Origin: Eledone cirrhosa
Taxonomy: Eukaryota
Reading direction: 5' to 3'
Assembly (NCBI GenBank): GCA_964016885.1
Contig: CAXHJY010001171.1
Location: 1 to 51,699 of the forward strand
DNA length: 51,699 nucleotides
The notes under the pieces are model-generated. The model searched no databases, had not been told where the DNA came from, and was given only the letters and a program-made list of their open reading frames with translations. The translations under genes and the position numbers were made by a program. Shown one piece after another: positions 12,989 to 46,789 of the stretch; the first letter of the stretch is position 1, and each line of letters begins with the position of its first letter.

Positions 12989-13180
12989 GTATTCATTGCT
13001 ATTTCAGAGCACCAGCCCTAATATATATGTATAATTGGTTACAACAGTCATATATACAGGTACTTAAGTTTCGTTGGGTTATACACCTGTACATACTACA
13101 GTATATATATCAAGTATGTTTTGAAACAGTGAGCAAGTTTGAAAATAGAAATAGCAGCGTTTGCAGTATTTTTGACTAAA

Positions 13181-14177
13181 GAAATGTTAGCCTGATAATG
13201 GGGTTTAGAACCCTGTAAGAAATGTTAGGCTGATAGTGGGGTTTAGAACCCTGTAAAAAATGTTAGCCTGATAATGGGGTTTAGAACCCTGTAAGAAATG
13301 TTAGGCTGATAGTGGGGTTTAGAACCCTGTAAAAAATGTTAGCCTGATAATGGGGTTTAGAACCCTGTAAGAAATGTTAGCCTGATAATGGGCTTTAGAA
13401 CTCTGTAGGAAATGTTAGGCTGATAGTGGGGTTTAGAACCCTGTAAGAAATGTTAGGCTGATAATGGGGTTTAGAACCCTGTAAGAAATGTTAGCCTGAT
13501 AATGGGGTTTAGAACCCTGTAAGAAATGTTAGCCTGATAATGGGGTTTAGAACCCTGTAAGAAATGTTAGCCTGATAATGGGGTTTAGAACCCTGTAAGA
13601 AATGTTAGCCTGATAATGGGGTTTAGAACCCTGTAAAAAATGTTAGCCTGATAATGGGGTTTAGAACTCTGTAGGAAATGTTAGGCTGATAGTGGGGTTT
13701 AGAACCCTGTAAGAAATGTTAGGCTGATAATGGGGTTTAGAACCCTGTAAGAAATGTTAGCCTGATAATGGGGTTTAGAACCCTGTAAGAAATGTTAGGC
13801 TGATAATGGGGTTTAGAACCCTGTAAAAAATGTTAGCCTGATAATGGGGTTTAGAACCCTGTAAGAAATGTTAGCCTGATAATGGGGTTTAGAACTCTGT
13901 AGGAAATGTTAGGCTGATAGTGGGGTTTAGAACCCTTTAAGAAATGTTAGGCTGATAGTGGGGTTTAGAACCCTTTAAGAAATGTTAGGCTGATAGTGGG
14001 GTTTAGAACCCTGTAAGAAATGTTAGGCTGATAGTGGGGTTTAGAACCCTGTAAGAAATGTTAGCCTGATAGTGGGGTTTAGAACCCTTTAAGAAATGTT
14101 AGGCTGATAGTGGGGTTTAGAACCCTGTAAGAAATGTTAGCCTGATAGTGGGGTTTAGAACCCTGTAAGAAATGTTA
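13181..14177. repeat. 38-bp minisatellite, about 26 copies
   Basis: Unit gaaatgttag(c/g)ctgata(a/g)tggggtttagaaccctgtaa. Confidence 0.97.
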
Positions 14178-14621
14178 ATCTGAAAGTCCACCCCCTAACG
14201 GGGAATTTATTTTGTTATATTTATGCATAGTTTATTTTATATTTTTTATATCATCATTGTTAAATTAGTCTTGCCATTGTGCACTTTTACTCGACCTTAT
14301 TGTAAACCCCTACTGTCCCTGTCTTTGTATTGTCCCCTACATGTCGGCCCTTGTGACTAATAAATGAAATCGTTATTATTATTATTATTATTTTCCTAAT
14401 CCTGGCAATAACACCTAAACAGAAATATACTATACAATGTTGTAAACTGCTTCTCCCAACAAAAAACAGTTTTTTATATTGTTTTTCTTGGGCTTTATTT
14501 GTTTTCTTTCCTGTTTGCTCATCTGGAGTATATTTTTCCAACTTCAACAGATACAAAACTCTGTATACATTCTTGTATAAGTATCTATATATACATGTGT
14601 GTGTGTATGTGTATATATATA

Positions 14622-15236: not shown

Positions 15237-15591
15237 TACAATGTTGTAAACAAATATATATATATATATACAAATTCAAGGTATCAGAACATATATATTA
15301 TGTCTGATATTTGTGATTCTTATTAGAAAAGCTGAATGAACATTTGTCCAGAGTATTTAGAAATACTGTATTATGGTTTCTTGAATCATGGCGCCATCTG
15401 GAAATAAGAACTTTTTTTCCATTTTGAAGTACGTATTTTTCATATTATGTACTTTTATATATGTACAAAATACTGAGTTTCGCAAAAGATAAATAGCTCT
15501 TACTCCCTCTCTTTATATACATATATCTCTAAATTTGGATTATATATATGTATATATATATATATATATAAATGAAAATAGAGAAATTAAT

Positions 15592-15778
15592 TGTTTCTAC
15601 TTTTGGCACAAGGCCAGCAATTATCCCAGTGCATTACTGGTACTTTATTTTATCGACCCCGTAAGGATGAAAGGCAAAGTTAACCTCGGCGGGATTTGAA
15701 CTCAGATCATAAAGGGAGGTAACTCTATGCTTCAAAGCATGGCGTCCGACCCTTACCGATACTGCCAATCCACCGCCC
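15592..15778 (-). mobile_element. tRNA-derived SINE (second family) with 19-bp TSD
   Basis: B box gagttcaaatc, central gcctttcatccttacggggtcgataaaataaagtacc; TSD tgaaaatagagaaattaat at 15573-15591 and 15779-15797. Confidence 0.88.
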
Positions 15779-16025
15779 TGAAAATAGAGAAATTAATGTG
15801 AGCAAGAAGCCAACAGTAATTCATATATATAAGTGACTATTACGTCAAGATGGAAAATATTCAACGTAAGATATGGGAAAATAATTCAAATTCAATTAAA
15901 AAAAAGTCAAGACAGAAATTTTATCCACAGATTTTGTGAAATCCAGGGAAAAAAACCAATAGAGTCTTAACTCAGAATAAAATTAAGGTTAAATACTTAT
16001 CCTTCAATTTGGAAAAACTACAAAT

Positions 16026-16106
16026 GCTCTATATAGTCTTAAAAAGACTATTTCACGAAACTTTTCAGTGGGGTTAGTCACGGTTGGAGTCGTTCATCAG
16101 TAGAGC
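16026..16106 (-). ncRNA. Canonical type I hammerhead ribozyme
   Basis: Minus strand: gctcta CTGATGA acga[31-nt loop]tcgt GAAA tagtctt ttt aagacta TA tagagc; stems 6/4/7 bp all Watson-Crick, intact core. Confidence 0.9.
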
Positions 16107-16147
16107 TCAAACACGATAACCAAATATATATATATATATATATATAT

Positions 16148-16268
16148 ATAGGAAAAGGTTCAGGACCCCAACAGCAGAGCTCAAGCCGTTTCGACGGCTA
16201 TTCTGAGTCCAGAAATAGCTGTCGAAATGGCTTGAGCTTTGCTGTCGGGGTCCTGACTCTTTTCCTAT
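16148..16268. repeat. Short imperfect palindrome (fold-back insert)
   Basis: tcaggacccc...gctattctg agtc cagaaatagc...ggggtcctga; related sequence 43090-43155. Confidence 0.75.
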
Positions 16269-16417: not shown

Positions 16418-16473
16418 CGCTGTATTTGGACTAAAGAAATTATCAGGCTAATTTCTTTAGTCAAAATACAGCG
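16418..16473. repeat. Hairpin related to the flank of the 38-bp satellite
   Basis: cgctgtatttggactaaagaaatta tcaggc taatttctttagtcaaaatacagcg; matches 13162-13199. Confidence 0.7.
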
Positions 16474-16489: not shown

Positions 16490-16682
16490 CAGGGGTATAA
16501 ACCCTCTTCAGTCACCAATGACCACGGGATTTGCACCTACAAGGTTCCCCCTCCGAAGCATAAGATTGTTTGTGGAAGACCAGTAGTCGCCCATGTATAC
16601 CAGTGCCCCCTCTCCACACTGCCGATGTTGTCCAAGGGAAAGGTAATGTCTGATACAGCTTGGTACCAGTGACACCACAACT
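16490..16682 (-). mobile_element. SINE 3' portion, source of the adjacent tandem array
   Basis: Minus strand agttgtggtgtcactggtaccaagctgtatc...cttggacaacatcggc...ggtgcaaatcccgtggtcattgg; recognised from memory as a SINE body. Confidence 0.6.
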
Positions 16683-17294
16683 ATATATATATATTATATA
16701 TGATGTTGTCCAAGGGAAAGGTAATGTCTGATACAGCTTGGTACCAGTGACATCACAACTATATATATACTATATATATTATATATGATGTTGTCCAAGG
16801 GAAAGGTAATGTCTGATACAGCTTGGTACCAGTGACATCACAACTATATATATACTATATATATTATATATGATGTTGTCCAAGAGAAAGGTAATGTCTG
16901 ATACAGCTTGGTACCAGTGACATCACAACTATATATATACTATATATATATATTATATATGAAGTTGTCCAAGGGAAAGGTAATGTCTGATACAGCTTGG
17001 TACCAGTGACATCACAACTATATATATACTATATATATATTATATATGATGTTGTCCAAGAGAAAGGTAATGTCTGATACAGCTTGGTACCAGTGACATC
17101 ACAACTATATATATACTATATATATTATATATGATGTTGTCCAAGGGAAAGGTAATGTCTGATACAGCTTGGTACCAGTGACATCACAACTATATATATA
17201 CTATATATATTATATATGATGTTGTCCAAGGGAAAGGTAATGTCTGATACAGCTTGGTACCAGTGACATCACAACTATATATATACTATATATA

Positions 17295-19250
17295 AGTTTG
17301 TTGTTGAGACACATAATTCTATCACGCAATTTGTGGAAGGAAGGGGTAGCTGAACCTGCCAGTAGAAGAAAGAGGGAGCGGGAGGGGAGGAAACCCAGCC
17401 GTGCGTTGATAGTGCCAACCACAGCAGGATCCTAAGGGCAGGAGGTGAAGAAAGTATACTAGGGAGGGGGAAGAGGTGGAAGTAGAAACAGTAAGTAAAT
17501 CAATATGGAGTAAATATATAGAAGAATAATAAGAATGTTAAAAATATTAAAAAACAATTTCTGGTTACTATTCCCTTACCACCATCATCAAGTCTCTTAC
17601 TGGTACTGCTAAACTATAGAGAAGTTTACTAGGTGTGTTGGAATTGTAGTGAGAGAATTTTATGAGTTAGTAGTAATCAACCGAATCTATCTTACAGTGA
17701 CGGGTCAACAAGTAGGGGGCCAAAATACTAAAGAAACTACTACGAAATAATAATTCAGAGTCCCGAAACTAATACGAGATAATAATTCAGAATCCCGAAA
17801 AAGAATACTAATACTATCTATAAGGGTGCCGCTACGATACAAAAATTCTAATACAAACTACATAGATGCTCGTACGATATATATGAAAAATTTGATATGG
17901 ACAAAAAATTCAGAATCTGGCGTCTATCACATCTGCTATAAAAAGCGGAGTCGGCCAATTCTATCATAGAATAGGGGATGGGGGTGGGGGGTACTGAAGC
18001 TACAAAGGACCGAAGGGCTGCCTCAGGGTGGGCAGGAAAGTGAAAAGGACAACGACAAAGAGGGAGAACTGGGGTGGAAGGACTAGGAAGAAGGAAATAT
18101 AGAGGAAACGATAAAAAGATATGAGAAAATCTTACGTCTACCTTTGCAAGCAGGGGTTACCCATTACAAAGTCGGCAAGAGGGGTGTTACAGCCCTTGTC
18201 TACTCCCCCCCGGTCATTATGGGGTTTGAGGGCAAGGTAAGCCCTATGCAATCTGTGTTTGCATGCAGTAACCAGTTCGTCTTTCTTGTTTAGGAGTTGG
18301 TCCTTCGAAAACAGCATTTGTAAAGTTTCCTCCGAGCATAAATTGCACGGACGGCGTCCTCCCGTGTAAGAGTTGGCTCTGGACAGTAAGCTCCAAGTGA
18401 GATCATAGGTAATATTATTATCTTTGAGGTCCCAGAAGTGGCCCGAAAGTAGTGGCGTGACGCCGGGCCGGGTTTCGGAAATTATGTCTGTGTTGGTATA
18501 GCCGGGTCTTGAAGTCACATGCGGTTAATCCTATATAAGCTTTGTTGGAGGTGTCCGTCCTCACGTTGCACTGGTAGATCACATTACAATCTCTGCATCT
18601 GTTGTCGAGGGGGAAAATGGATCCATCAGGACAGTTGCACCTCCTGGTCGGCTCTCCACTGCTATTAAGGTTATTTCTTCCATAGGGGTTGAGTTTTTTG
18701 TTGTTAGAGGAGGCGATGTTTTGTGCAAAGTTAGGTGTGGTGTTGTAGGAGAGTTTGATGGTATTTTTGTTGATTATGTTGTGGTAGCGGTGTTGTAGTG
18801 GGAAGTGTTTTTCGATGAGCCTAAAGAAGATTTTCCCGATAGGTGTTGTCACCTCGGCGTTGTTACATGATTCAATCCTCCCCACAACGCCGAGGTGACA
18901 ACACCTATCGGGAAAATCTTCTTTAGGCTCATCGAAAAACACTTCCCACTACAACACCGCTACCACAACATAATCAACAAAAATACCATCAAACTCTCCT
19001 ACAACACCACACCTAACTTTGCACAAAACATCGCCTCCTCTAACAACAAAAAACTCAACCCCTATGGAAGAAATAACCTTAATAGCAGTGGAGAGCCGAC
19101 CAGGAGGTGCAACTGTCCTGATGGATCCATTTTCCCCCTCGACAACAGATGCAGAGATTGTAATGTGATCTACCAGTGCAATGTGAGGACGGACACCTCC
19201 AACAAAGCTTATATAGGATTAACAGCATGTGACTTCAAGACCCGGCTATA
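17295..19250 (-). mobile_element. Penelope-like retroelement, 5'-truncated with inverted duplication
   Basis: GIY-YIG coding region on minus strand plus about 840-bp 3' UTR; 367-bp inverted arms 18497-18863 and 18884-19250. Confidence 0.9.
18138..18863 (-). pseudogene. Penelope-like linker plus GIY-YIG endonuclease (probably Naiad-type), one frameshift near 18450
   Basis: NTIKLSY, CNC..PLDNRC, NVIYQC..AYIGLT..FKTRLYQH, then LSGHFWDLK..CNLCSEE..LNKKDELVTACKH. Confidence 0.88.
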
Positions 19251-19530
19251 TATACTATATATATATATTATATATGTTGTTGTCCAAGGGAAAGGTAATG
19301 TCTGATACAGCTTGGTACCAGTGACATCACAACTATATATATATTATATATGATGTTGTCCAAGAGAAAGGTAATGTCTGATACAGCTTGGTACCAGTGA
19401 CATCACAACTATACATATACTATATATGATGTTGTCCAAGAGAAAGGTAATGTCTGATACAGCTTGGTACCAGTGACATCACAACTATATATATACTATA
19501 TATAAATATTGTATATGTTGTTGTCCAAGG

Positions 19531-21302
19531 TATTGTAAGCAACTCGTCTAGGAGAGCTACCACTCTGAATAAATTGATGCGGGGTAGAGAAGTTCCCTGA
19601 GTCCAGTAAGATGACCTCTCTAGTGCTGGTGGCACGAATAAAAGCACCCAGTCCATGCTGTAAAGTGGTGCTGGTGTTAGGAAGGGCATCCAACCAGTAT
19701 ATATACTACTGTCAAAATCTGATTGCAATGAATGAAATTTGCAACAACTGCGTCAACAGCAATAACACTAACCATGTTAGGGCTGCACACGGTAGTGGGG
19801 TGGCTGGTGCGGCCATGTGTGAGAACCCCCCGACCGTCCTCAAGCAATCGCACAACAGGAAAAAGAATGGGATGTCGCATCTCAGGGTTGCCACACTTAA
19901 TGTTGGCACTCTAACAGGTAGATCTAGTGAGATAGCGGAGATGCTGGAGAGAAGGCATGTGGATGTGTGCTGTGTGCAAGAGGCGAGATGGAGAGGTGCC
20001 TCTGAAGACTAACCACATGCAAACATCTTAGTTATAAGCTTTTCTGGGTGGGTAATGATGATGGGTTAGGTGGGGTGGGCATATTACTGGCTGAGAGATG
20101 GATCAATAAGACAATAGAGGTAGTTAGAGTTAGTAATAGAATAATTAAGATTAGATTAGTTGTAGGTAAGAGACTACTGACAATCATCTCTGCCTATGCT
20201 CCCCAGGCAGGCCTAGGTAAAGAAGAGAAAGACTGCTTTTACGATCAACTTTTACAAACAGCCTCAATGACAGAGGACAGGGACATCGTTATGATAGTAG
20301 GGGACTTCAATGGTCATGTTGGACAGCTCCAGGATGGATACATGGGGTACATGGTGGGTACGGTTATGGCTCAAGAAATGAAGGAGTGAGGCTTCTTGAA
20401 TTTTGTTATGCAAATGCTCTAAACATTTGCAACACTAACTTCCAGAAACCTACCAACCAGCTAATAACCTACAAATCAGGCGAACACATAAGCCAAGTTG
20501 ACTTCCTGCTAGTTAGACAGTGAGACAGACAGATGGTGTCAAATACTAAGGCATACCCCGGGGAAGAATGTACCCCACAGCATAGGTTAGTCGTTAGTGA
20601 TATCTCAGTAAGCAAGAGATGGAATGAGATATACAGGAAGGTGTGGAAAAGAAAGGTCTAGACCTTTCACTAAAATATAAATTTAGGAAAGCCCTTCAAG
20701 ACGTGTATGATGAGTAAGATGATGATTTAGAAACATATGACAGATGATAACTGGAATTTTTTATATGACAACTTACTGCAGGCTACTGAAGAGACTTGTG
20801 GCTGGAGCAGAGCTCCAACCAGACAGAGAGTGACCTGGTGGTGGAACAGCACAGTAGAGAGGGCCATTAGAGACAAAAGACTAGCATGGGATGCTTGGAA
20901 AAAGGGTGGGAGTAGGGAAGGATATACAGCAACTGCAGAGGGTATGCGACAGCTGGAGAGAAATGAAGCAAGTATGCTCCATTGGATGTGTAATGTCAAT
21001 GTACGTGAACAACCAAACATAGATGAGTTGTAGTGTGCAGGAGAGAAGACTGCGATGGTAATGACATGTGATGTACCTGGAGGTTGACTGCTGGGTAAAG
21101 AAGTGCCAATAAATCCCAGTAGAAGGAAGACGTAGCAGAGGAAGACCACGTAAAACATAGGTGGAGGTGGTGAGAGCGGACCGCAGATCGCTGAAGATCA
21201 CGGAGGAGATGACGAAGGACCGTGACAAGTGGAAAGATGCTGTGCTGAATAGGACCCGTCCCACCCTTGCAAGCATGGAAAAGTGGACGTAAAATGATGA
21301 TG
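19531..21302 (+). mobile_element. RTE LINE with 5' UTR and APE domain, RT deleted
   Basis: LRVATLNVGTL, CVQEARW, ISAYAPQ, VGDFNGHVG; jumps at 20930 to the C-terminal region; (GAT)n tail. Confidence 0.9.
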
Positions 21303-21698
21303 ATATATATATATAATAAATTTAAAAAAAAAATAAAAAAAATATTATTGCTCTACATGGCTGAATACAATAAATGTAATCTGAGTTTTTCAAATAATAA
21401 TATTCGATTCGTTTGCAATTATGCAAACAGTCTCTTTTTTAAAGCCATGTCAGTAGAATGACCTCCTCATTTTTGCTCTTGTGTTCTTTTTTATTTATTT
21501 GAATATAGCAAAGCCGGTCATTTATCGCTCATATAGAGGAAACCGACTGGCCAGTCTGCTGATATGGAAATCTGGCTGATCAGTGGATCTGCTAATATGC
21601 AGATCTGACTGATCAGCCAGTCTGCTAATATGCAAATCTGTATATTTTAGAAAATAGCATATATTTTCACTAGCTCTGACAGTTGGCAGGTGAACAGT

Positions 21699-21748
21699 GA
21701 ACTGTACTGGTGAAGGGTGATACCCAGAAACATTAGTGTCTACAGTTC
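21699..21748 (+). ncRNA. Type I hammerhead, core-mutated (A6G)
   Basis: gaactgta CTGGTGA a gggt gat accc a GAAA cattagtg TC tacagttc; perfect 8-bp stem I. Confidence 0.7.
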
Positions 21749-21859
21749 TGTTTACATGCCAACACAAGAGCAAGAATGAAGGGCTCATTCTACTGACATG
21801 GCTTTAAAAATGAAGCTTGTTTGCATAATTGCAAACAAATTAAATATTATTATTAATAT

Positions 21860-22560
21860 ACGTGAACAGCAAAGCATAAATGAACTAAGTGAGAAATTAG
21901 AAATAAGAGGGATCAGATGCTGTTTACTTGAGAGAAGACTACATTGTTATGGTCACGTGATCCGCATGAAAGACGACAGCTGCATAAAAAAGTGCAGGGC
22001 GATCAAAAGTGACGGTAGCTACGGAGTAGGTAGACCCAGAAAAACCTGGGACGATCTGATAAATTCCGACCTTACACACTTACACCTCTCCAAGACAATG
22101 TCACTGGACCGAGATCTTTGGCGCTACGCAGTAATACAGAAGTCACGCCTTGCCAATGTACAAAGCAAAACCTACAGTCAGTAGGCACCTCCTATCCAAA
22201 TATACACCCCAATCCACTACCCTATCCTCCCACTCCCACCAACACCACCCTCTCTCTATAAAGTTGGTACCACAACATCCAGTCCAAATAAATGAGATCG
22301 AGATCGAGATTGTGTAGGTGTCACGACAAAAACACACAGTCCACGCTGTAATGTGGCCGTGTAGGTAACACGGTAAAAAGTTCCCAGTTCCACACTGTAA
22401 ACGTTGTTGGTGTTAGGAAGGGCATCCAGCCGTAGAAAGACTGGCAGACAGTCCTATATGAGCGAGACACGGCCACCCGACCAACCTTGCCTCAAGTGGG
22501 ACAACTCCCGTCTAACCCATGCTAGTGTGGAAAATGGACGTTAAACGATGATGATGATGA
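21860..22560 (+). mobile_element. 5'-truncated RTE with 3' UTR and (GAT)n tail
   Basis: RRLHCYGHVIRM...GRPRKTW; tail gatgatgatga at 22547-22560. Confidence 0.88.
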
Positions 22561-22604
22561 TTCGAAAAACTCAGATTAGTTATATATATATTATACATAT
22601 ACAT

Positions 22605-22762
22605 TGTGAATTGGCAGTATTGGTAGAGGGTCAGACATGCTTTCCAGCATAGTTACGTCCGAGCCGAGGTTAACTTTGCCTTTCATCCTTACGGGGTCGA
22701 TAAAATAAAGTACCAGTAATGCACTGGTTAATTGCTGGCCTTGTGCCAAAAGTAGAAACAAT
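22605..22762 (+). mobile_element. SINE (second family), partly deleted
   Basis: Reverse-complement homologue of 15592-15778. Confidence 0.8.
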
Positions 22763-22807
22763 TATATATATATATATTGTATAGGCACTAAGCAAGTACA
22801 CTGACTT

Positions 22808-25065
22808 GCAACACAAACTTCCAGAAACCTGCCAACCACCTAATAACCTACAAATCTGGCGAGCACATCAGCCAGATTGACTTCTTACTAGTTAGGCAGC
22901 GGAACAGGCAGATAGTGTCTAATACCAAGCCATACCCTGGGGAAGAATGTACCTCACAGCATAGGTTAGTTGTTAGTGATATCTCAGTAAGCAAGAGATG
23001 GAATGAGACATACAGGAAGGTGTGGAGAAGAAAGGTCTGGAAGCTAAAAGACCTTTCACTAAAATACAAATTTAGGAAAGCCCTTCAAGATGTGTATGAC
23101 GAAAAAGATGATTTAGAGACGTATGACATAGATAATAACTGGAATTTCTTACGTGACAACTTGCTGCAGGCTACTGATGAAACCTGTGGCTGGAGCAGAG
23201 CTCCAACCAGACAGAGAGTGACCTGGTGGTGGAACAGCACAGTAGAGAGGGCCATTAGAGACAAAAGACTAGCATGGGATGCTTGGAAAAAGGGTGGGAG
23301 TAGGGAAGGATATACAGCCGCTAAGAGAGAAGCTAGACGTCAGGTGTACTTAGCATGCAGGGAGGCGGAGAGTAGGAGGTTTGCCAATGTTCTGCGACGG
23401 GGTAATCAGAGGCGTGCAGCGTTCCACATTGCAAGGCAGTGTGTCAATGCAAATCAGGATGTTGTTGGAGATAAATATGTCCGGGATGATGCCGGTGTAC
23501 TTAGTGTCACGAATGATCAGAAAAAGGAGGCCTGGAAATGTCATTATGAGAGACTGATGAATGTGGAGAACGAATGGGAGAGAAAGAAATTACCCTTAGT
23601 AGATCCAACAGAGGGACCGGCTATTGAGATTGATGAATATAGGGTCCAAGAGGCAATTAAGGAAATGAAAAATGGTAAGGCAGTGGGACCGTCGGGGATA
23701 GTTGCTGACATGCTGAAGACAACAGGGGACGTAGGCACTAAACCGGTTGCACGCATCATCAATCAAGCTATATATGGTGGTGTCATACCCAAAGACTGGT
23801 GCAGCAGTATTCTCATAAATTGCTACAAAGGTAAAGGGGATGCTCTTGAGAGGAGCAATTATAGGGGTATAAAACTGATGGATCAGGTTATGAAAGTGGC
23901 AGAAAGGATATTAGCACAACTAATTAGAGAAAGGGTCAAACTAGATGAGATGCAGTTTGGTTTTGTGTCTGGCAAGAGTACAACAGATGCCCTCTTCTTG
24001 GTGAGACAATTACAAGAGAGGTTCTTAGAGAAGAATAAGCCACTATACTTAGCCTTTGTTGACCTAGAGAAGGCCTTTGATAGGGTACCCCGATCTGTCA
24101 TCTGGTGGTCCCTAAGGAAACTATGTTTTGAGGAATGGCTTGTGAGGACAGTGCAAAGTTTGTACAGAGGTAGTCAGTAAAGTCAGGGTAGGAATGGAGT
24201 TTAGTGAGGAATTTCAGATACAAGTAGGAGTACATCAAGGTTCGGTCCTCAGCCCGCTCTTGTTAATTATAGTCCTCCAAACCATAACAGAGGAGTTTAA
24301 GACTGGCTGTCAATGGGAACTTCTCTATGCTGACGATCTGGTTCTTATAGCAGAATCAGTAGAGGAGCTAGAGAATAAATTCTGGCTATGGAAACAGCAG
24401 TTGGAAGCAAGAGGACTGAGAGTGAACCTAGCTAATACAAAAGTGTTGATGAGTAGAAAAGAGGACAAAACTCTGATTCCATCAGGGAAATGGCCATGTT
24501 CGATATGCAGAAAAGGAACTGGCATAAATTCTATAAAATGCACACAATGCAGATCCTGGGTACACAAGAGGTGTAGCGGGATAGCAGGCAAACTAATATG
24601 TATGCAGTAGATGTACAGGGAAATTAGACAGTAGAAGTCGCATTGATAGACACATTTTTCAAATGCAGGAGGGCGCTATAGAAGTGGTGGATAGCTTCCG
24701 GTACCTAGCAGATCAGATTATCATGGGAGGGGGGTGTTTGGAGGCCATAGTATCTAGAATAAGGACGAGTTGGAAGAAGTTTAGGGAGCTGCTTCCTCTG
24801 CTGACGAAGAAGGGTTTCTCCCTGCGTACGAAAGGCCGGTTGTATGATGCCTGTGTGAGGAGCGCGATGTTTCATGGTAGTGAGACACGGGCAGCAACTG
24901 CAGAGGATATGCGACGGCTGGAGAGAAATGAGGCAAGCATGCTCCGTTGGATGTGCAGTGTAAATGTGCGTGAACGACCCAGCATGAATGTGTTGAGAGA
25001 GAAACTGTGTCTGAGAGGGATAGAATGTAGTGTACGGGAGAGGAGACTGAGGTGGTATGGACATA
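22808..25065 (+). pseudogene. RTE LINE ORF: APE C-terminus, reverse transcriptase and Cys/His finger; frameshifted
   Basis: 421-aa ORF with SQHRLVV, NYRGIKL, QFGF, FVDLEKAFDRV; next frames GVHQGSVLSP, LLYADDLVL, CSIC..CTQC..VHKRC, RRLRWYGH; frameshifts near 24180 and 24600-24660. Confidence 0.95.
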
Positions 25066-25079
25066 TTTAATTAAAAACA

Positions 25080-25127
25080 TGGCCTTGATAAACGCTCACA
25101 AGCGAGAAACAGACTGTCTGTCGGCCA
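25080..25127 (+). ncRNA. Type I hammerhead, U3-A8 core variant (family B)
   Basis: tggcc TTGATAA a cgct caca agcg a GAAA cagactgtctg TC ggcca; preceded by a short inverted copy of its own tail (25063-25080 vs 25203-25221). Confidence 0.7.
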
Positions 25128-25263
25128 CTCTCTGTTACTTTTGCCGAGAATAAGTAAATGACATAGTCACTACTTTAAAACTGATAGCAAATGGTCTTCT
25201 AAATGTTTTTAATTAAACATACAGTATATTGCCAAATATACTATACATACATACACATATATA

Positions 25264-26495
25264 CAGGGTGCGGACAATATTTGTTCGCAAGATTACTGTC
25301 TAGGAAAAAATAACACAGTAGTTTTATTTTTTAAGATATATTTATCAAACTTGGGTCAGTTTGTCTTCATGACTTGTTCTTTCGATCTCACTTGATAAAC
25401 CCACCATTGGCTTTGATGACGGCCTCAAGACGGCCTCGGAACTGGCTACAGGCCTTCGTCACTGTCCCCCGACTTAGGCCCCTAAAGGCACTTGTGATCC
25501 TGGCCTTCAGATCGTCTTTCGTATTGCAGCTAGATCTGTTGGTGTCTCGTTCCACTGCACCCCACACAAAGAAGTCAAGGGGGTTGCAGTCAGGTGAGCT
25601 GGGAGGCCAGATGTCAGGTGAAGTGTGGTCGACGAAGTTCTCTGAGAGCCAGGCTTGGGTCTTTCGGCTGGTATGGTAGGGTGCTGAGTCTTGCTGCCAC
25701 ATGTACGGCCTACCTGCAGCTACCTGGTCGATCAGGGCTTTACTACCTCGCTCAGAACGCGGATGTAGCCATCGGTGTTCAGCTTGTGGCCCTCAGGGAA
25801 GAAGTGAGGTGGCATGACGTCACCTAAGACCAATGTTGTCGCTGGAAACTTTGTCTGCATGACTCTGGGCGCGTCTTTGGATGAGACAGCGAGCCACCTG
25901 TTGTTCTGGGAGTTGATCTTCTGGTCTTGGCAGAAGTTTTTCTCGTCGGCGAAAACCACAGCATGTCTGGCTCCAGTCGATGTTTCAACTTGTTGATCAG
26001 CTTCTTTGCGTGCTTCAGTCGCTTTTCTTGCATCGCCTTTGACAGAAATTGTTCTTTCCTCATCTTGTATGAAACGTAGTGAATGTCTTCATGTACCACC
26101 AGCCTAATGAGCTTTTCATCCACGCCTTTCTCCCTTGCAATGGCATGCATCGACTTGCTAGGTTCATTGTTGATGATATCCTGAAGGCGTCAGATCGTCG
26201 ATCATGTTTCTCTCTGATGTTGCTTCGTAGTTGAACCCTGAATCTTCCAATTCCTTTCTGACCTTTTCCACCATTCTCCTGCTGATGCTGAGAAAGTCTG
26301 AAATTTCCTTATTTGTCCTCCCGGTGAGGATTCCACAAATTTGGAGGTTCAAAATTATTCATAATCTATTATTCTGAAAATAAATAATGGAAATATAGTC
26401 ACTGTTTTTATGAAGACAAGAGTGACAACGGAAGTAAAAAAAATTTGCATAAAATTAGCAGTTGAAAATTGCGAACAAATATTGTCCACACCCTG
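25264..26495 (-). mobile_element. Tc1/mariner transposon, DD37D (maT) family, full length
   Basis: 27-bp TIRs cagggtg(c/t)ggacaatatttgttcgcaa (25264-25290, 26469-26495); TA TSD on both sides. Confidence 0.95.
25388..26352 (-). pseudogene. DD37D transposase, frameshifted
   Basis: DEKNF, QQDSAPYH...SPDCNPLDF with 37 residues between the 2nd and 3rd Asp; split over 4 ORFs. Confidence 0.92.
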
Positions 26496-26690
26496 TATAT
26501 ATATATGTGTGTATAATATATATATATATATATATATGGTAATAATATATATATATATATATATATACGGTAAACATTGTTGCAATTCAATTCAAGCACT
26601 CAATGTTTTTTTCCACATAGGAGTGACGGAGTATATTTAGAATGAGAAAATGTGAAGTAGTTTCAGATGTTAAAGTCCTTTATTGGTAAT

Positions 26691-26765
26691 GCTGTAATAC
26701 ATATTTCAATGACGACAGTGGCTACACGATTCTGTGTACCCAGTGCTGTGACATCATCAGACAGC
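26691..26765 (-). ncRNA. Type I hammerhead with extended stem II, minimal stem III (family F)
   Basis: Minus strand: gctgt CTGATGA tgtcacagcactgggtacacagaatcgtgtagccactgtcgtcatt GAAA tatgta TT acagc; tail 26575-26690 homologous to 42695-42830. Confidence 0.75.
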
Positions 26766-27089
26766 TTCTTACGTTCTCACAGCAATCCAAAGTGAAACAA
26801 CGAGGGAACGGACAAGGCGTGTGTTCTTGTATCCCTCGTCTGTTCCCCTGTGAGCCACAATTCACATCCACCGGCGCAAAAAGTGATGGAACCATCCACT
26901 ACCCCAAACTAGCCTAGGCAAGTTTTCCTCACCCTCAACCAAAAATATTTTAGCACCTTGTTGAGCGCTTTATGGTGTAACCGATATTGTAAAGAAGCGA
27001 GCACATGTCTATATTGTCACCTTGGTAGCTTTATATAAAGTACATACCTGAGACATGTCTATATTGTCATTAGTCACCTTGGTAGTTCT

Positions 27090-28130
27090 TAACCTGTTCT
27101 TTTGTAGAGGTGTCATTTTCAGAGATTGAGCCTTTCCCCTTGCAGCAGCGTAAAATAATTTTGCATCTCTGGCAAATAATCTATTTAGCTGTTGCCGTTT
27201 ATGTGCTGTTGACTTATATTTTAGTCTTTCTGCTACAGTTTCTGTTTCAGGTGGTTTAGTTTGGAGTTTCAAATGCTAAATCTTGTATCTCGAAATCATC
27301 TTTCTTGCTTTCTTCTTAAATCTTCCTGATGTTCTCTATTTTGTATTTTATAATTACAGCGATTTATGAATTACTTCGTCTCAAGGACAACATTTTATTT
27401 TGTAAATTACACATCCACGTTGGTTTAGGTTTTCTGTTAGTATCTTGGTTGCATGGTTTCAGGTGTTTATGATAGGATAGCAATGTGACAGCTGAAACAT
27501 ATATCAAAATATTAATAATTTTTTAGGTTGTCTCCACACCTTTGGATAATTGTCAGCTATTTCGTTCACTGCTTCCAATTCTGATTTAGTGGGTTCTTTA
27601 CTGATTCTGGTGTTGTATGGTCTGTTAATCAATTAAGGCTGTGTATCTCTTGAGACATATCCCATATCACTTGTAATGTGTCCACAAATTTTTGGTGTTC
27701 TGTTTGTACAGTAGAATTATGGATTTTAGCTATGTTGTTGGTGTGCTACTGCTAGATTCAGCTGACCATTCTCTCTGTTCATTGGTGGAAGTTGGGTGAA
27801 TTTCAGCTATGTTGTTGGTGAACCGTTTATTGATAGATTTAGCTGACCATTCTCTCTGTCTGTCAATGGAAGTGGAATGATTGTCTTCAATAGTGTCATT
27901 CAGTTCCGTTAGATGTATCAATTTACATATAATGATACATTTTCCTGTTCATTTAAATATTTTGGGGAAAAGTCTAATTCTAGGTGTTTGGAGTTCCACA
28001 AAGTTTTTAGTCTCTGCAAAAAACCGAATGTTTGGGGGTCAGATTGTTCATATAAATCTTTGTTGAGATCCTAACTCAATTGTATACAATGGTTGTAGTT
28101 GCGATTTGGTTGAAGAAGACATGTTTTGCC
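27090..28130 (-). mobile_element. Highly decayed non-LTR retrotransposon fragment (possibly R4/Dong-like)
   Basis: Minus-strand pieces ILIYVSAVT and ERLKYK..RQQLNRLF...KLFY resemble the pre-RT region of RLE-type LINEs; no RT core seen. Confidence 0.35.
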
Positions 28131-28482
28131 ATGATGAGTTCGTCTATTCACTAATATTTGCATTTATTTTCAGAATACACGATGATCTTTAAAAGTTTCG
28201 ACACAGTTTTGTCATAATTAAATTTAAAGTTGTTCCCAGCTTGGGTAATATTTCCTTACGGCTAGTTTTTAATTCTACAACTGTATTTTAAACGTTTATA
28301 TTTAGCTTTTTCTTTTTGTTAGGTGAATCGTTTTGTAATGTTACTTAGTATGTTTCTTTATGAATGTAATATAACAACGCTGTATTTATATGTTAAAATC
28401 TATGTAACATTCATATAAATATATGTGTTGCAATATATTTACAGTTCAAACACTTTTGTAGAAATATTGTATGTAATCTTAC

Positions 28483-28758
28483 TGCATTCTGTAGATCAAC
28501 TTTTCCAATATATGGTATGTTGCCTTCATATAAGCCATAATTACACACGCCCAATCATCAAACTGACCACAATGGTTGCCATTAGTATTTATGTATATAT
28601 GTGTGTATTTATATGTACGTATGTATGTATGCTTATGGAAGTAAATCCAATCCATATGCCACCACCATAAACTGTTCCCCGATAGCAGTGAGCAGAGATA
28701 TGATCTGGGGGTGTCATGAACGTCAGAAGTGTCCAGCACCATAGGCTCAAGCACAAAC
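28483..28758 (-). other. Candidate (pseudo)exon
   Basis: ctctctgatAG acceptor, GCA|GTAAGA donor, 276 nt; hydrophobic reading LCLSLWCWTLLTF..GGGIWIGF interrupted by a microsatellite-like insert. Confidence 0.25.
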
Positions 28759-29304
28759 CTATCAGAGAGCTGTTGTTATTTTTCTATTAGCATTTACATT
28801 ACTCTACAATTATATTTGCCTGGTAAAGGTTTTATCTCCCATAATATGTAATCTAAGAAATTTTGATGACATTATTTTAAGAACAACCCCTTAACACTAG
28901 TACGAGTGGGCAGGTGTGACAGTTTGAAGAGAAAGACATGAGAAAATTCTGACTGTATATGGCTTGTTTAAATGCTAAAGGGTTAAACTAGAGAAATGAG
29001 TAGCATTACTGAGCCATCAGAAACATGAGACTAAAACTAATGAAAATAGGGCTTCACTTCACACATCTTGAATCACATGAAACCAAGACAGCATCATGTT
29101 AGAAATTAGTCTTTACGACAAATTTCACAACAATCTGTCCACATAATATATTAGTTAAAAAATAATTTTTTATTTCTAGCTTTGGTACACGTGTCTTTGA
29201 TTTCTTTGTAGAAAATGTTGACCCCAATTCATAGCCAGTAGTTATTTTATCTACCTCAGAGTGATGAAAGGCAAAGTGGGTTATTTCAGTGGGATTTGAA
29301 CATT

Positions 29305-30006
29305 TGTAGAACACGACTACACACATGTAGAACACGACTACACACATGTAGAACACGACTACACACATGTATAACACGACTACACACATGTATAACACGA
29401 CTACACACATGTAGAACACGACTACACACATGTAGAACACGACTACACACATGTAGAACATGACTACACACATGTAGAACACGACTACACACATGTAGAA
29501 CATGACTACACACATGTAGAACATGACTACACACATGTATAACATGACTACACACATGTAGAACACGACTACACACATGTAGAACATGACTACACACATG
29601 TAGAACACGACTACACACATGTAGAACACGACTACACACATGTAGAACATGACTACACACATGTAGAACATGACTACACACATGTAGAACATGACTACAC
29701 ACATGTAGAACACGACTACACACATGTAGAACACGACTACACACATGTAGAACACGACTACACACATGTAGAACATGACTACACACATGTAGAACATGAC
29801 TACACACATGTAGAACACGACTACACACATGTAGAACATGACTACACACATGTAGAACATGACTACACACATGTAGAACATGACTACACACATGTAGAAC
29901 ATGACTACACACACATGTAGAACATGAGTAAACACACATAGAACATGACTACACACATGTAGAACATGGCTACAGACATAGAACATGATTACACACATGT
30001 AGAACA
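29305..30006. repeat. 21-bp minisatellite, about 33 copies
   Basis: Unit tgtagaaca(c/t)gactacacaca; begins at the B-box region of a SINE remnant (29220-29300). Confidence 0.97.
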
Positions 30007-30381
30007 AAATGAAACACTTACGAGGCATAACTAAACACATGTCAAACATTTAATCAAACATTCCACCACTATCAGATGGATTAATAAAAAAAAAATAAGA
30101 ACATTTTATTTTTTAAAAATTTAATAATGTGTTTTTCTTTTCTTTCATGTTTAGTAGATTACATTTAATTATATTTTTCTTTTGTAATTAAAAATAGGAT
30201 TAAATATTTAATTAACAGCAGCAAATGTTCTACACTTGGACTACACTGAACCATTAACGATAGAATAAAAGAAAGAATGGTGTGGAACTACTAACAATAG
30301 AAATCCAAATAAATTATATTTTAAAATAACTCAAGTTTATCCCAATCATTAAAAAGAAACAAACTAAAAACAGTGTAATTC

Positions 30382-30418
<37 letters not shown>

Positions 30419-30697
30419 GTTTCTGATTTAGGCACAAGGCCAGCAATGATAATAATAATTATAAAGTTTATAAAGATTAAAAATAAAATGCATGGAAAAA
30501 ATTAGATCGTTTAACATCAAAGTTGGATACACACAATTAAACATGAATTCAAACCATAGAACAGGTGAGAAAGACAGGCAGGTGTGTGTGTATATGTGTA
30601 TATATATGTATGTATATACAGGAGAGAAAGGTAGGTAGATATAAGAGATAGAAAAGCCAAATGTGTTGTGTGTAAGTATATATATATATATAATTTT

Positions 30698-32228
30698 GAA
30701 CTTCAAGGACAGGTGGTATAACCACCATCATACCTTTATAAGGATAAACAAAAAGAAAAGTACGGCCCTTTCCGAACTGATTTGGTCCAAGGTTAGGGAG
30801 GTACCTCCAGACGGAGGGAGGCCTGCAACCTCTGTCAGAGTGAGACTCTGGAGATACTCAGAGGTGGGAGTAATCTAATCAACCTTAGGGTGGGAACTTC
30901 CCTCAAGCTATATGGATAGCAACCCCGTCACACTGAGCCCCCACGACACCAACCCCACTTCCTATATCAACATCTTGTCTCGAATAACATTTATAACACC
31001 ACTGAGACATACTTACCTAGCAGCTAGACCCATGCCTCACACCCCTGTGGTCCACCCTTCTCTCTCACTTCCTTATCTTGAACCCAAGTTAACAGACCCT
31101 AGATAATTAGCGAAGTGATGTACGTCGGCAGAGTCCTACCGTGTGCAACCAGGCACCCCACGTTTCCAACCACCGGGCCTCACCACCCAACCCCAGTCTG
31201 TGATCCGGTTTTCCGAAGGATATGCTACCTCAAACCTGACCCCTTTCGCATGCAAGAGTCAGTACTATTACAAGTAAATAAGACACACCTATTACTTCTC
31301 TCCCACTCCACTGAGAGGACATATGTGTCTGTGTCTACGTATGTGTATATGTACTTGTGTGTGTGCATGTATATATGTGTACGTAGTTATGTTTAGCTAC
31401 GGATGTATGTGCATGTATAGATGTAGGTATGTGTGTGCACCTATAGTTTTATGTGTGTACATGTATGGGTGTATGTTGATGGATCTTTGCGAGTGTGTAC
31501 TAAATGTTTAAAATACAGATTATAATTCTTAACACTTCTAGATTTTAACACGTGTTTGTTCTAGCACACACATTTATAACATCTCCCACTATAAAACCTG
31601 ACAGTATAGACAAGTACTGACACCACCAGAGGAACCCATATCAGTTTACCTACATAGATTCTTCCTTCACAACCTAATTACCACAACAGGGGGATTGTAA
31701 TTGACCTGCTAACAGGGTGAGAGTGATTGACCTGCTAACTGACCTGCTCACACCAATACCACTACAGCGAAGTAGGTCAACTGGACCAGTATATAGATGC
31801 AGTTAAAAGCAACTGTAACAGGCTGACCTGTTTCTAGGAGAAGTGACCAAAAAATTTCAATAGATTTATGGCTGGTGTGTTGATATGATATCTGACCAAT
31901 GAGGTGAAGATATCCTTCGGACGCTGGAATAGCTGGGGGGGGAGATATGATATCTGACCAATGAGGTGAGGGCATGTCCTTTGGACACTGGAATTCGTTC
32001 ATTTAAATCATATGCTTTCAGTTCCTTAGAGGACTAACACCACACTCGGGATCTGAAAATATCAACGGATTAACACGGTAAAATCTATTACAACATTATG
32101 TTTTTCTGTTCAAGTTCTAACTGCCTGATGAGGTCATAGATGTTGAATAATGGTCATCACTGAAATATATATAACAGCGAATATGAATAAACGAAGCTAA
32201 TTTTACCCTGTTGACTTACACTTCTTGT
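30698..32228 (+). mobile_element. Penelope-like remnant (endonuclease C-terminus, 3' UTR, HHR)
   Basis: FKDRWYNH..STALSELIW..CNLCQSETLEI at 30700-30880; HHR near the 3' end. Confidence 0.7.
32120..32178 (+). ncRNA. Minimal type I hammerhead, partly decayed stem I
   Basis: actgc CTGATGA ggt cata gatg...catc act GAAA tatata TA acagc. Confidence 0.65.
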
Positions 32229-32287
<59 letters not shown>

Positions 32288-32369
32288 GAAATTTTACAAA
32301 AAGAAATGTTATATGGTTTGAAGCAATGAAATCAGCGTGGCTGGGCATATATGGAGTTCTCCAAAACAA

Positions 32370-32605
32370 ATGAGGTCGTGTAGGTGTCACGACAAAAAAA
32401 CACACAGTCCATGCTGTAATGTGGCCGTGTAGGTAACACGGTAAAAACCTCCCAGCCCCACACTGTAAACGTTGTTGGTGTTAGGAAGGGCATCCAGCTG
32501 TAGAAAACCCGCCAGACAACCACTCTTGCCTCAAGTGGGAAAACTCCCGTCCAAACCCATGCAAGCGTGGAAGATGGACGTTAAACGATGATGATGATGA
32601 TGATG
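32370..32605 (+). mobile_element. RTE-type 3' tail / SINE tail
   Basis: Homologous to 22313-22560; (GAT)n tail. Confidence 0.75.
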
Positions 32606-32772
32606 CTGATCTCCTTCACTAATGATGAGTTGAGAAAATGTTTGAGATTTCTTTCTATAAAAACTACAATAAAATAATTTATGATATTCTGTCATTTCAC
32701 AACTTTAAAAAGACACTGAATATGAAATATCCAATATTATGACAGTGTGTGTGTGTGTATATATATATACAT

Positions 32773-32895
32773 ATATCCGTTTGTGGTTGACGGCTGAGAG
32801 AAAGGAGTACTCAATACAAAAGTAGAGCTTTAATGATGACCCTGTGATAAACAGGTGAAACTCCAGAGTAACAAGACTCACTATTTAGTCTTAAT

Positions 32896-32900
<5 letters not shown>
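32773..32900 (+). mobile_element. Family E inverted insert with truncated HHR
   Basis: 32834: TGATGA c cctgt gataa acagg t GAAA ctc ca gag TA acaag; 32773-32834 is the reverse complement of 14755-14812. Confidence 0.6.
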
Positions 32901-32939
<39 letters not shown>

Positions 32940-32940
<1 letters not shown>

Positions 32941-33138
32941 TCCTCAGTTAAATCAGAGGTAACCACAATAACTAAGGTACTCAATACATTAGTAGTGTGT
33001 AAACATCATGTTTAATATAGACATGGCTTCTACAGGACTAGAACTGTTTCATGATTTCCTTCAAATGCAAAAGTTCTAGTCCTGTATTAAACATGATGTT
33101 CACACCCTACTGTGGTTACCCTCAATTTTACTTGGGAT
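32940..33138. repeat. Family C fold-back insert
   Basis: Inverted blocks acaggactagaact / agttctagtcctgt and aacatcatgtttaata / tattaaacatgatgtt; homologue 37108-37217. Confidence 0.7.
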
Positions 33139-33149
33139 ATATATATATA

Positions 33150-35505
33150 CATATATTTAACAATAATTCCCAATACTATAATGAGGCCTTAGCTAAATCA
33201 GGCCATAAAAAATGGGATTGAATTCCTACATATAAAATCACATAGTTACAACATTATTTCTCACAATATAGCCACAAGGAAAAATAATAAAGGTACTAGC
33301 CACTCTTACTCTAAGACGAAGGGTAATATCAAACTTAACTCGCACCAAAGTAAACACCACAAAAATAATATAAACAGAAATACAAATACCTCAAAAGACA
33401 TTACAAAAAACAAAAATAGAAGAACTAATACATTCTTCAATCCCCCTTTCAATCTAAACGTCTCTACCAACTTGCCTAAGGCTTTCTTCTCAATCCTAGA
33501 AAAAAACTTCCCATCTGGCCACAAATACCATAATCTTATAAATAAAAATACCATTAAAATCTCTTACTCTACCACACCAAACAGCTAGTAGTAATAAAAG
33601 GAAGATTAATAATTATTTCCAACTAATTACAACACAACAGGAGGTAAACTTACAGAACAACATAGTACCTGTAAACCCTAGTAGCAATAGTAATAATGGT
33701 AATAGCACTAATGAAATCAATAACAATAGGAACAACAACCATCATTACCCTAATGCTATCCATAGCAACCAGACTTCTACACAACATAGTAACCAGCAAG
33801 CTAACACCCAGAATAAATGTAACTGTAGATCAAATAGAACTTGCCCCTTAGGTAATAATTGCTTAATCAAAGACATCATTTGCTCTTGCACTGTTAACAC
33901 AAACAACTCTTCTAAAACTTATATTGCCTCTACTTCGAACTGCTTCAAGATGAGATACAACTCGCACCTCCACTCTTTCAAAAAACACCTAGCTACAAAC
34001 ACTTTCTGAAAACTAGGAATAGACCATACACACTTCAATGGGAAGTAGTAGGTAGGGCCACATCGTATAAACCACCGAATAAATTATGTAACCTGTCTTC
34101 TAGAGACCCGTACTATAATCTTTTCGAAACTAGACCTCCTTAATAGAAAGTCAGAGATGTTTTCCTCATGCCAGCACCACTACCGACACTCATTCCATAA
34201 CTTTAAACCTAGCCGCTAGTATATAACAATGTCAGATTTGAATTCCCCACCACCTCTAACACTTCACCTCTAGGAATTTCCTTCCCCCACAGCATCAGAC
34301 TCTTTGATCTGCTCTTTCCTCTACACAACTCCTATTTATCTCAAACCTTATACTCTACAATAACTATTAGAAATAAACATCTAGTCACCACCTTTTAATA
34401 TAACTACTTTAGATTACTTATAATATATAAAGTAATGGATATATAATATGTAGAGACATTAAATGTAATATGTGATAATGAATTATATATACATTTATAA
34501 TTAAATATATAAATTAATAGCATTGTATATAAAGGATTAAATTATTAACATAAGGGATTTAACTAATTGGACATGTAAACAGCTATACATTGTTCCATAA
34601 CTTATATCTTGTCTAGTAATGGATAGATAACAATCTAATGAAACCTTTAATATATTATGAGAGAATAGACTGTATTTAAAATTAAATATAAATATATAAC
34701 ATTATGTAAAAGGGATTCAATTGTGACACTATATAATGTCTATTAGAGCAAAGAATTTAAATAGTTTAATTTAATGAGCTAGTTACATCCCTTACGCATT
34801 AGCTCCCCTTAATTTTGGATCTCATATTCACTTCCGGAAATTAAACCATTGGAAAATCTTGCCGTAGAACAACTCTAATCCATGAATATGAATACAATAA
34901 GACCAATTTACAATCCATTACTATAACCAACTAAAAACATTCAATACAAACATTAACTAAAATATAATTTAACATATGTAATGGATAGGAAATCAATAAC
35001 TTTCATATTCGCAACACATACAAATTTGAACTCTACAGAAACTATCGTCGCATTACATCCTCCATAATACACTAACATATTCGCTTAAAGTGCTTGTATT
35101 TTATGTAATACCTTGCCATACAGTATTTATTTATCTATTTATGCCTAATACCTTTGCTTGTTTCCTTCTCATATATCACTAACGCATGTGCACTCTCTAC
35201 GCGCTTGAATATGTATTGCTAGTGTCCTCAATGCCTCTTTAATTATTAGACTATTCTCTTGTATTATCTGTTGCATGTTTGTACAATTCTCGTAAAATAT
35301 ATGTTGCATCCATTCCACCCTGTAAATACTAAACTGTTGCTCACAACATCAATATATATGTATCTATATGATTGTTCAGTTGAATAGGAGGTTAATTATA
35401 TGTACAAACATTGATAATGCTCCGATGACTCTAAACGAAAGTTTGGTAGAAACGATTGTCAGCTATTAAATGATTTGAACATAACTTTGATAATTGTGTA
35501 TTTTA
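33150..35505 (+). mobile_element. Penelope-like element remnant (linker, GIY-YIG pseudogene, 3' UTR, HHR)
   Basis: FFNPPFNLNV..FPSGHKYHNLINKNTIKISYS, CNCRSNRTCPLGNNCL..TYIASTS.CFKMRYNSH, ATSYKP..LCNL (33420-34220). Confidence 0.85.
35415..35468 (+). ncRNA. Minimal type I hammerhead (U4C core)
   Basis: taatgct CCGATGA ct ctaaac GAAA gtttgg ta GAAAC gatt GTC agctatta; GNRA-capped stem II. Confidence 0.65.
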
Positions 35506-35601
35506 TATATATACATATATATATATAGAACAGCATGTATAATATAAAACTAACATTGCCGAATCTAAGAAAATAATTGCCTAAGTTTACTAAATGAAAA
35601 T

Positions 35602-46678: not shown

Positions 46679-46789
46679 ATAATTATCTTATGTTGTTTAT
46701 TACATAACTATTAAGCTCTGTAGCCTACATAGAGCACTCTTTTTTCCTGTACCTTTCTGACGGAATTACTTCACCTACATATATGTGTG

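Follow-up and report, generated by a model that had tools for sequence, protein, structure and literature searches.

Positions 16106 to 16026 on the minus strand of the 51,699-nt stretch of DNA analysed here (the window) raise two questions: whether they hold a genuine hammerhead ribozyme, and what kind of element brought it there. The role of hammerheads in Penelope-like elements (PLEs) is still debated; most animal ones need dimers and cut poorly, and a purified PLE had no need for cleavage in vitro in the available text of PMC11167929. An animal family that is present in many copies and closes a conserved stem III by itself would permit a simple monomer assay with natural variants. Otherwise, the motif is one hammerhead among many, as the window alone contains three or more motifs that are complete.

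A type I hammerhead motif on the minus strand

On the basis of its sequence, we consider the segment to be a genuine type I hammerhead ribozyme motif, for which self-cleavage is predicted. The invariant core (CUGANGA, GAAA and UH) is intact, and three helices are present, of which helix I is open-ended. Its parts are as follows.

16026..16106, minus: whole type I hammerhead motif (sequence, pair check, descriptor scan with shuffles)
16101..16106, minus: 5΄ strand of stem I, six Watson-Crick pairs with 16031-16026 (pair probability 0.97 when isolated)
16094..16100, minus: catalytic core C3-A9, CUGAUGA; N7 (16096) is the sole varying site among the variants listed
16055..16093, minus: stem II and loop II; four Watson-Crick pairs, 16093-16090/16058-16055, and a 31-nt loop, 16089-16059
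16051..16054, minus: core G12-A15.1, GAAA (sequence)
16034..16050, minus: stem III; seven Watson-Crick pairs, 16050-16044/16040-16034, and a 3-nt U loop
16031..16034, minus: AUA triplet (16034-16032), with the predicted scissile bond at 16032/16031 (sequence and NUH rule)
16026..16031, minus: 3΄ strand of stem I, paired with 16106-16101; U-to-C at 16031 in about half of the family depth

Stem III is extended by A15.1-U16.1 to 7+1 pairs. The NUH rule is the established basis for predicting hammerhead cleavage sites, and the AUA triplet accordingly falls where the first-pass annotation had placed the cut, between 16032 and 16031 on the minus strand. Its statement that all core nucleotides and three Watson-Crick stems are present was likewise confirmed, with 6, 4 and 7+1 pairs. 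The description of the motif as fully canonical, in contrast, goes too far: the first pair of stem II (10.1-11.1) is A-U rather than G-C, loop II spans 31 nt, no tertiary contact between helices I and II was recognised by eye, and a search of 15950-16135 returned no Rfam hammerhead match at E ≤ 10. The Rfam test is insensitive here, since none of the other hammerhead motifs in the window gives an Rfam match either.

We scanned the window with a strict descriptor (stem I ≥ 6, stem II ≥ 4 and stem III ≥ 7 pairs) and a looser one (≥ 5, ≥ 4 and ≥ 2 pairs, respectively), and applied both to 4,596 windows shuffled block-wise with dinucleotide composition retained. The strict descriptor gave no match in the shuffled windows and the looser one gave five. 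In the real window, the scan identified three motifs, at 36966 (plus), 46411 (minus) and 16100 (minus).

The motif lies in a truncated copy of a non-coding repeat

The copy that contains the motif spans 15779-16123 (345 nt) and starts at 16123, directly after a (TA)n run. Its surroundings are as follows.

16124..16150, unstranded: (TA)n run at the 5΄ junction, the likely insertion target (repeat listing)
16107..16123, minus: 5΄ leader remaining after truncation, which can pair with loop II (fold prediction; loose ends at 16108 and 16110)
15779..16025, minus: non-coding family tail, 247 nt past the motif, with high family depth throughout
15592..15778, minus: SINE-like later insertion close to the very end of the element, within its final bases (target duplication of 19 bp, 15779-15797/15573-15591; B-box motif)
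15546..15572, unstranded: (TA)n run at the 3΄ junction (repeat listing)

We take the insertion at 15592-15778 to be a SINE from its B-box. The first-pass annotation had put the limits of the insert about 20 nt upstream and 245 nt downstream of the motif; these agree with a start at 16123 and a tail of 247 nt reaching 15779, although the 5΄ limit is valid for the window copy only, because other copies continue upstream. The insert was also said to lack an ORF, and stop codons indeed occur in all six frames of 15779-16123, leaving no long ORF. The copy has neither a tRNA head nor a terminal inverted repeat, and the window holds no second copy of the family. In size and composition, the 345-nt copy fits the range described for retrozymes (170-400 nt, non-coding, low GC). 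TA runs adjoin many unrelated repeats in the window.

A high-copy family in public sequencing runs

The stretch is wholly or partly present in six public runs from three organisms, none of which is recorded as RNA; this carries no information on expression. Run X1 may come from the source of the window itself. Four of nine candidate runs were compared with 15780-16125 at 80% likeness. Family matches were found in 1,538 contigs of run X1, 34 of organism B and 3 of organism C, as well as in 2,496 reads of a RAD run; the run that yielded 3 contigs was X6, in which the share was low. The motif therefore belongs to a family, as the annotation had supposed. In X1, the summed depth over 15780-16091 was 14,000-85,000, compared with 6-24 for the eight longest contigs, from which we roughly estimate hundreds to thousands of copies, depth not being equal to copy number. 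This depth showed no steady rise to the 3΄ end, and fell to 19,000-34,000 between 15900 and 15995.

The ends of family matches were examined using the 19 of 232 loose ends that were listed. Among these, the ends at 16108 and 16110 extend the family upstream with non-TA sequence, and those at 15825, 15860 and 15913 start with or soon reach TA runs, which indicates that shorter truncated copies exist. The listed loose ends thus have variable 5΄ starts, and no pLTR pair or inversion was seen for the family. The annotation had proposed a search for tandem or circular copies; none emerged, as no head-to-tail joints within 15780-16125 occurred in the four runs, a comparison from which units longer than 346 nt would escape. 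A contig of organism C contains an 11-nt match to the 3΄-end stretch shortly before its core (loose end 16088).

No ORF for a reverse transcriptase (RT) was linked to the family by sequence, 30 letters of upstream family sequence being visible, and a 16-nt motif from this upstream sequence is absent from the window. The family would behave like the end of a Hydra-type PLE, a likeness that, with no linked ORF, falls short of membership. Sequence scans found no family match in viral contigs or prokaryote genomes. The sole metagenome match to a 19-nt motif (L001) was rejected as a chance match, as it consists of 21 nt without GAAA or stems. The literature searched holds no description of the repeat family; Repbase and Dfam may contain it, and similar motifs may exist in the supplements of PMC4209133, PMC7229834 and a 2026 preprint.

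Variation within the motif

Variant figures rest on the 40 of 89 rows that were listed. Thirteen of the 40 fall in the motif, namely nine in loop II and stem II, two in stem I, one at N7 and one in loop III, and the stem II region is accordingly the most variable part of the motif among the rows listed. None of the 13 lies on the 12 invariant core positions or the 14 paired positions of stem III (hypergeometric P = 0.004); for the core positions alone, the avoidance gives P = 0.10. Variation in stem III (one substitution and two small indels) is restricted to the loop and its U-run, with both indels within the loop III U-run.

The stem I change U16031C made up 47% of the depth in X1 and 72% in X4, and was present in 50% of the reads from X7. 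A loose-end consensus at 16088 (331 reads, agreement 0.61) carries G at the partner of 16031 and U at the partner of the change at 16056. Judged from these sequences, the changes at 16031 and 16056 fit swaps from A-U to G-C in stem I and from C-G to U-A in stem II, although the two halves of either swap were never observed together on one molecule. The stem I change at 16104 has no partner change among the variants listed.

Predicted folding and activity

We estimated folding with nearest-neighbour energies, which leave out Mg2+ and the tertiary energy of the core; the estimates therefore rank motifs and cannot exclude activity. In the isolated 81-mer, stem I formed with a probability of 0.97, stem III with 0.95 and stem II with 0.14, and the complete active fold, which lies 0.9 kcal/mol above the minimum free energy (MFE), with about 0.05. 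Stem II and the complete fold are rare in the 81-mer because a rival hairpin buries or pairs G12. Addition of the 17-nt 5΄ leader lowered the active-fold probability to 0.001-0.007 at 37°C, and the whole insert lowered it to 2e-5. In the transcript 15990-16125, the active fold reached about 0.3%, a drop that arises because the 5΄ leader pairs with loop II. Stem III retained a pair probability of 0.91-0.96 in every construct, as the annotation of a stable 7-bp stem III had implied. The accompanying expectation that the motif should fold as a monomer is upheld in that no dimer is needed, but the complete fold is predicted in only about 5% of the 81-mer and about 0.3% of 15990-16125.

The motif had also been called the best candidate for real activity. 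The motif at 46411, which has a GUA site and stems of 6, 6 and 2 pairs, equals it in predicted fold probability (0.06), and this claim was not sustained. The motif at 36966 is minimal, with a predicted fold probability of 3e-5.

From these models, we predict that the ribozyme would act as a monomer and cut at AUA, but that cleavage would be slow and take place at raised Mg2+, because stem II is weak, no tertiary contact is recognised and the flanks favour rival folds. We lean towards expecting measurable cleavage of the isolated 81-mer at 10 mM Mg2+, and consider it rather unlikely that the 16026-16106 copy would cut efficiently within a long transcript. Hammerhead cleavage leaves a 2΄,3΄-cyclic phosphate and a 5΄-OH.

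Fast-cleaving hammerheads are expected to have a tertiary contact between helices I and II, either loop-loop or pseudoknot. The leader:loop II duplex has a predicted energy of −8.9 kcal/mol; duplexes as strong arose with 579 of 2,000 shuffled leaders and with 182 of 2,000 random 17-mers, and its strength is thus no greater than expected by chance. It could form a pseudoknot, a contact predicted in approximately 40% of hammerheads (Perreault et al., PMC3088659, available part).

The 253 nt from the cut site onward (15779-16031) are predicted to form a rod (folding z = −2.88; 1 of 200 shuffles was as good). No compensatory support was found among 28 variants, of which 8 preserve pairing, 8 disrupt it and 12 lie at unpaired positions, and a conserved downstream rod was accordingly rejected. 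The 5΄ pentamer of stem I (16101-16105) recurs 316 nt downstream at 15785-15789, the end of the element, and for this second occurrence, pairing with the 5΄ end of the product left by cleavage is predicted.

Neighbouring Penelope-like elements and other hammerhead motifs

A Hydra-clade-like PLE fragment lies on the same strand, 1.2 kb upstream of the motif.

17292..19250, minus: 3΄ fragment of a Hydra-clade-like Penelope element, its 5΄ piece of 367 nt inverted (inverted repeat, protein match)

In tblastn, this fragment matches the C-terminal half of P0002, a protein that bears an RT (E 2e-29), and YIG, CxxC and CxH motifs occur in it. It has a decayed hammerhead of its own at 17592-17545, with one extra core base and an AUA site at 17545, which was matched in none of 3,000 shuffles of its 909-nt UTR. 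The two layouts are alike: the hammerhead of the neighbour lies about 250 nt from its TA end, and the cut site of the studied motif lies 253 nt from its end. When the studied family was compared with the end of the neighbour and eight other hammerhead-like ends in the window, none of the nine comparisons exceeded z 2.5; as they have no sequence in common, we regard the repeat family as separate from the neighbour. We rejected an origin of the motif as a displaced 3΄ end belonging to the PLE at 19250-17292, since that PLE has its own hammerhead and end and shows no similarity.

A second Hydra-like PLE fragment lies at 33193-35530 (plus), where 33542-34006 encodes an exact CxCX5C linker; the hammerhead-like motif near 35420 in its long AT-rich 3΄ region is broken and is followed by a TA run. 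The YIG, CxxC and CxH motifs and the linker mark the Hydra clade (PMC8557442), and in the window they occur only in fragments separate from the studied copy. Pfam recognised none of the four endonuclease-region fragments in the window; the LINE at 22792 gave a match to RVT_1.

Hammerhead-like motifs at 32125, 36966 and 37636 (plus) and 26760 (minus) have a common GAAA-UA...UA-U-H core and stem II spans of 30-46 nt. The annotation had contrasted the studied motif with minimal Penelope-type hammerheads nearby. The contrast stands for stem III, in which a 13-nt hairpin replaces the 2-nt centre of the other window motifs, but was drawn too sharply, as a GAAA-UA...UA-U-A core and a long stem II span are common to both. 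Another hammerhead-like motif, at 1071 (minus), has a GUC site and a mismatched stem II base; this motif and those at 32125, 36966, 37636 and 26760 are minimal or decayed. An inverted pair of near-canonical hammerheads, at 46366-46411 (minus) and 46627-46672 (plus), forms a tail-out fold-back around a hairpin at 46468-46571. Such a fold-back (46366-46672) is typical of PLE inversions, and by its predicted fold, the 46411 motif is as good an assay candidate as the studied one.

Several other structures were noted in the window. A fold-back with 55-bp arms (16148-16268), related to 43067-43142, lies immediately upstream of the motif, and 12 of 13 bases of its right arm are common with the junction of stem I and core; judged by sequence, the structure may derive from a different PLE end that folded back, or the resemblance may be due to chance. 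A 56-nt palindrome at 16418-16473 is related to the repeat 13111-13199, from which a 38-bp tandem array (13160-14189) appears to have grown. The segments 16604-17290 and 19256-19500 make up one tandem array of 76-89 bp units, split by the inserted Hydra-like PLE, and the array presumably originated in the terminal part of a LINE-type 5΄ region. Long near-perfect inverted repeats at 18497-19250, 42700-43060 and 46340-46690 would give long dsRNA if transcribed. A decayed coding-like stretch at 27150-27500 (minus) seems to resemble the N-terminal part of an R4/Dong-type retrotransposon.

Origin of the copy

We consider it probable that the motif sits in a 5΄-truncated copy of a non-coding repeat that forms the 3΄ end of a hammerhead-bearing Penelope-like family, and that the copy was inserted into a TA microsatellite by reverse transcription. 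The anatomy of the motif, a multi-copy family in three organisms, TA flanks, varied starts beside TA and the lack of tandem joints support this reading, as does the neighbouring Hydra-type fragment at 17292-19250, which has the same layout. The parent element was most likely of the Hydra type: a canonical hammerhead near the 3΄ end is seen here, with the cut site 253 nt from the end, and (TA)n lies on both sides of the copy and at the ends of other copies, although this target is not specific to the clade. We lean slightly towards a parent that encodes its own RT rather than one that borrows it.

In the proposed mechanism, the family RNA would be bound by a Penelope-type RT/GIY-YIG protein, which would nick (TA)n and begin cDNA synthesis at one set position, about 250 nt to the 3΄ side of the ribozyme. 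In the window copy, cDNA synthesis would have stopped 17 nt past stem I. Because the copy spans the cut site, its template would have been uncut, or re-ligated at the scissile bond; misfolding that depends on the flanks is a plausible reason for an uncut template according to the fold models.

A reading that we consider unlikely goes further, and regards the family as a dispersed, non-autonomous ribozyme retro-RNA of this animal lineage, conserved in three organisms, of which monomer cleavage would be gated by its own flanks. The leader:loop II pairing would then either switch cleavage off or, as a pseudoknot, activate it, with the 3΄ end of the element mimicking the stem I 5΄ strand. Such an RNA could toggle between an intact template for retrotransposition and a cleaved or circular form of about 316 nt. 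If this were true, the family would offer a single-molecule system for asking why Penelope-type elements keep a ribozyme that destroys their template.

Three other origins compete with the 3΄ end of a Penelope-like family. We consider it quite unlikely that the copy is a solo, circularly permuted monomer of a non-LTR retrozyme, that is, a unit of approximately 320-350 nt that cleaves itself from tandem transcripts, is circularised and is copied by a PLE enzyme. The size and low GC of the copy lie within the 170-400 nt units of PMC7229834, as far as its available part describes them, and the type I motif, the absence of an ORF and the self-paired downstream RNA (z = −2.88) would also be expected. 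The recurrence of the stem I 5΄-strand pentamer 316 nt downstream (15789-15785) and the organism C contig with its 11-nt match to the 3΄-end stretch shortly before the core point in the same direction, and solo monomers are known in retrozyme families (10.64898/2026.07.22.740005, available part). However, no joints were found in 1,538 + 34 + 3 contigs or 2,496 reads with both ends of the stretch covered (units longer than 346 nt being invisible), the upstream family sequence is unlike the 3΄ end, the window holds a single copy, and the downstream rod has no compensatory pairs (8 kept, 8 broken and 12 unpaired of 28).

The lack of an RT link, together with the TA runs beside many unrelated repeats in the window, would suit a hammerhead captured by a repeat other than a PLE, such as an unclassified SINE, the end of a LINE or a DNA transposon, in which case the PLE-like layout would be a coincidence of TA targets. 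This origin is very unlikely, since the core, the AUA site, the long stem II span and the end distance resemble those of other hammerhead-like ends in the window, and the copy carries no tRNA head or terminal inverted repeat. If the hammerhead consensus had been matched by chance next to an ordinary hairpin, the absence of an Rfam hit and an MFE fold without stem II (z = −0.85) would be explained, but this origin is extremely improbable given that this motif class appears in 0 of 4,596 shuffled windows and that diverged copies have kept both the core and stem III.

Comparison with known systems

The following comparisons refer to the available parts of the cited papers. Nearly all Hydra PLEs target (TA)n and carry canonical hammerheads, and they include an Octopus family (Craig et al. 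2021, PMC8557442). The clade is defined by a CxCX5C linker, its single ORF being marked by RT and, at the C terminus, by a GIY-YIG without CCHH, and by our arithmetic on S1/S2 of that paper, the elements end approximately 35-350 nt past the cut site. The studied motif resembles these hammerheads, including Hydra-1_oBim of Octopus bimaculoides, in being of type I, in sense orientation, with a 3΄ end abutting (TA)n; a closed stem III, an A at position 17 (common there), a first stem II pair other than G-C (which occurs there) and a tail length within range are further likenesses. In contrast, each of the 26 published Hydra rows combines a GUH site with 3-4 bp in stem III and 3-10 nt in loop 2, whereas the studied motif has AUA, a stem III of 8 bp and a loop II of 31 nt, and the studied copy, unlike Hydra-clade PLEs, has no linked ORF. 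A search of the available supplement of Craig et al. with two sets of short motifs, five and four, found no family match and one 9-mer common with the Hydra-1_oBim leader.

Helix III is usually 1-2 bp in animals, and PLEs of fungi and protists are described as carrying large-helix-III motifs active as monomers (Cervera and De la Pena 2014, PMC4209133). Those of the Serpula lacrymans type are similar to the studied motif in their type I topology, large helix III and lack of a recognisable helix I/II contact, and one fungal motif cleaves as a monomer with kobs of 1.97 and 0.16 per min at 10 and 1 mM Mg2+, respectively (PMC4209133). These PLEs are endonuclease-less and telomere-associated, whereas the studied family is dispersed in TA microsatellites of an animal-type genome, and its cleavage is a prediction. 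With the minimal hammerheads of metazoan PLEs (Penelope/Poseidon and Neptune; PMC4209133), the motif shares a single-motif arrangement, truncated copies, an enlarged stem II and variable sequence. Unlike these, which lack a stable helix III and depend on dimers, it closes helix III alone.

Retrozymes, for which units in tandem and circular forms are the defining features (Cervera and de la Pena 2020, PMC7229834), are argued to derive from PLE pLTRs, and cleavage was found in one of nine dimers tested (Li, Clavereau and Pollet 2026, 10.64898/2026.07.22.740005). Like the animal non-LTR retrozymes of these two papers, the studied family is small, low in GC, non-coding and high in copy number, with one type I hammerhead; unlike them, it shows no tandem arrangement, and its helix III is far longer than the 1-2 bp usual for canonical motifs in metazoans.

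For one PLE, reverse transcription begins at an internal site on the 3΄ side of the hammerhead, and uncut RNA serves as template in vitro (Frangieh et al. 2024, PMC11167929). The repeat landscape of the window would fit a cephalopod host. The giant squid genome paper gives 235 loci of Rfam hammerhead 1. The hammerhead class is already known, and a long stem III in an animal family represents a modest variant of it.
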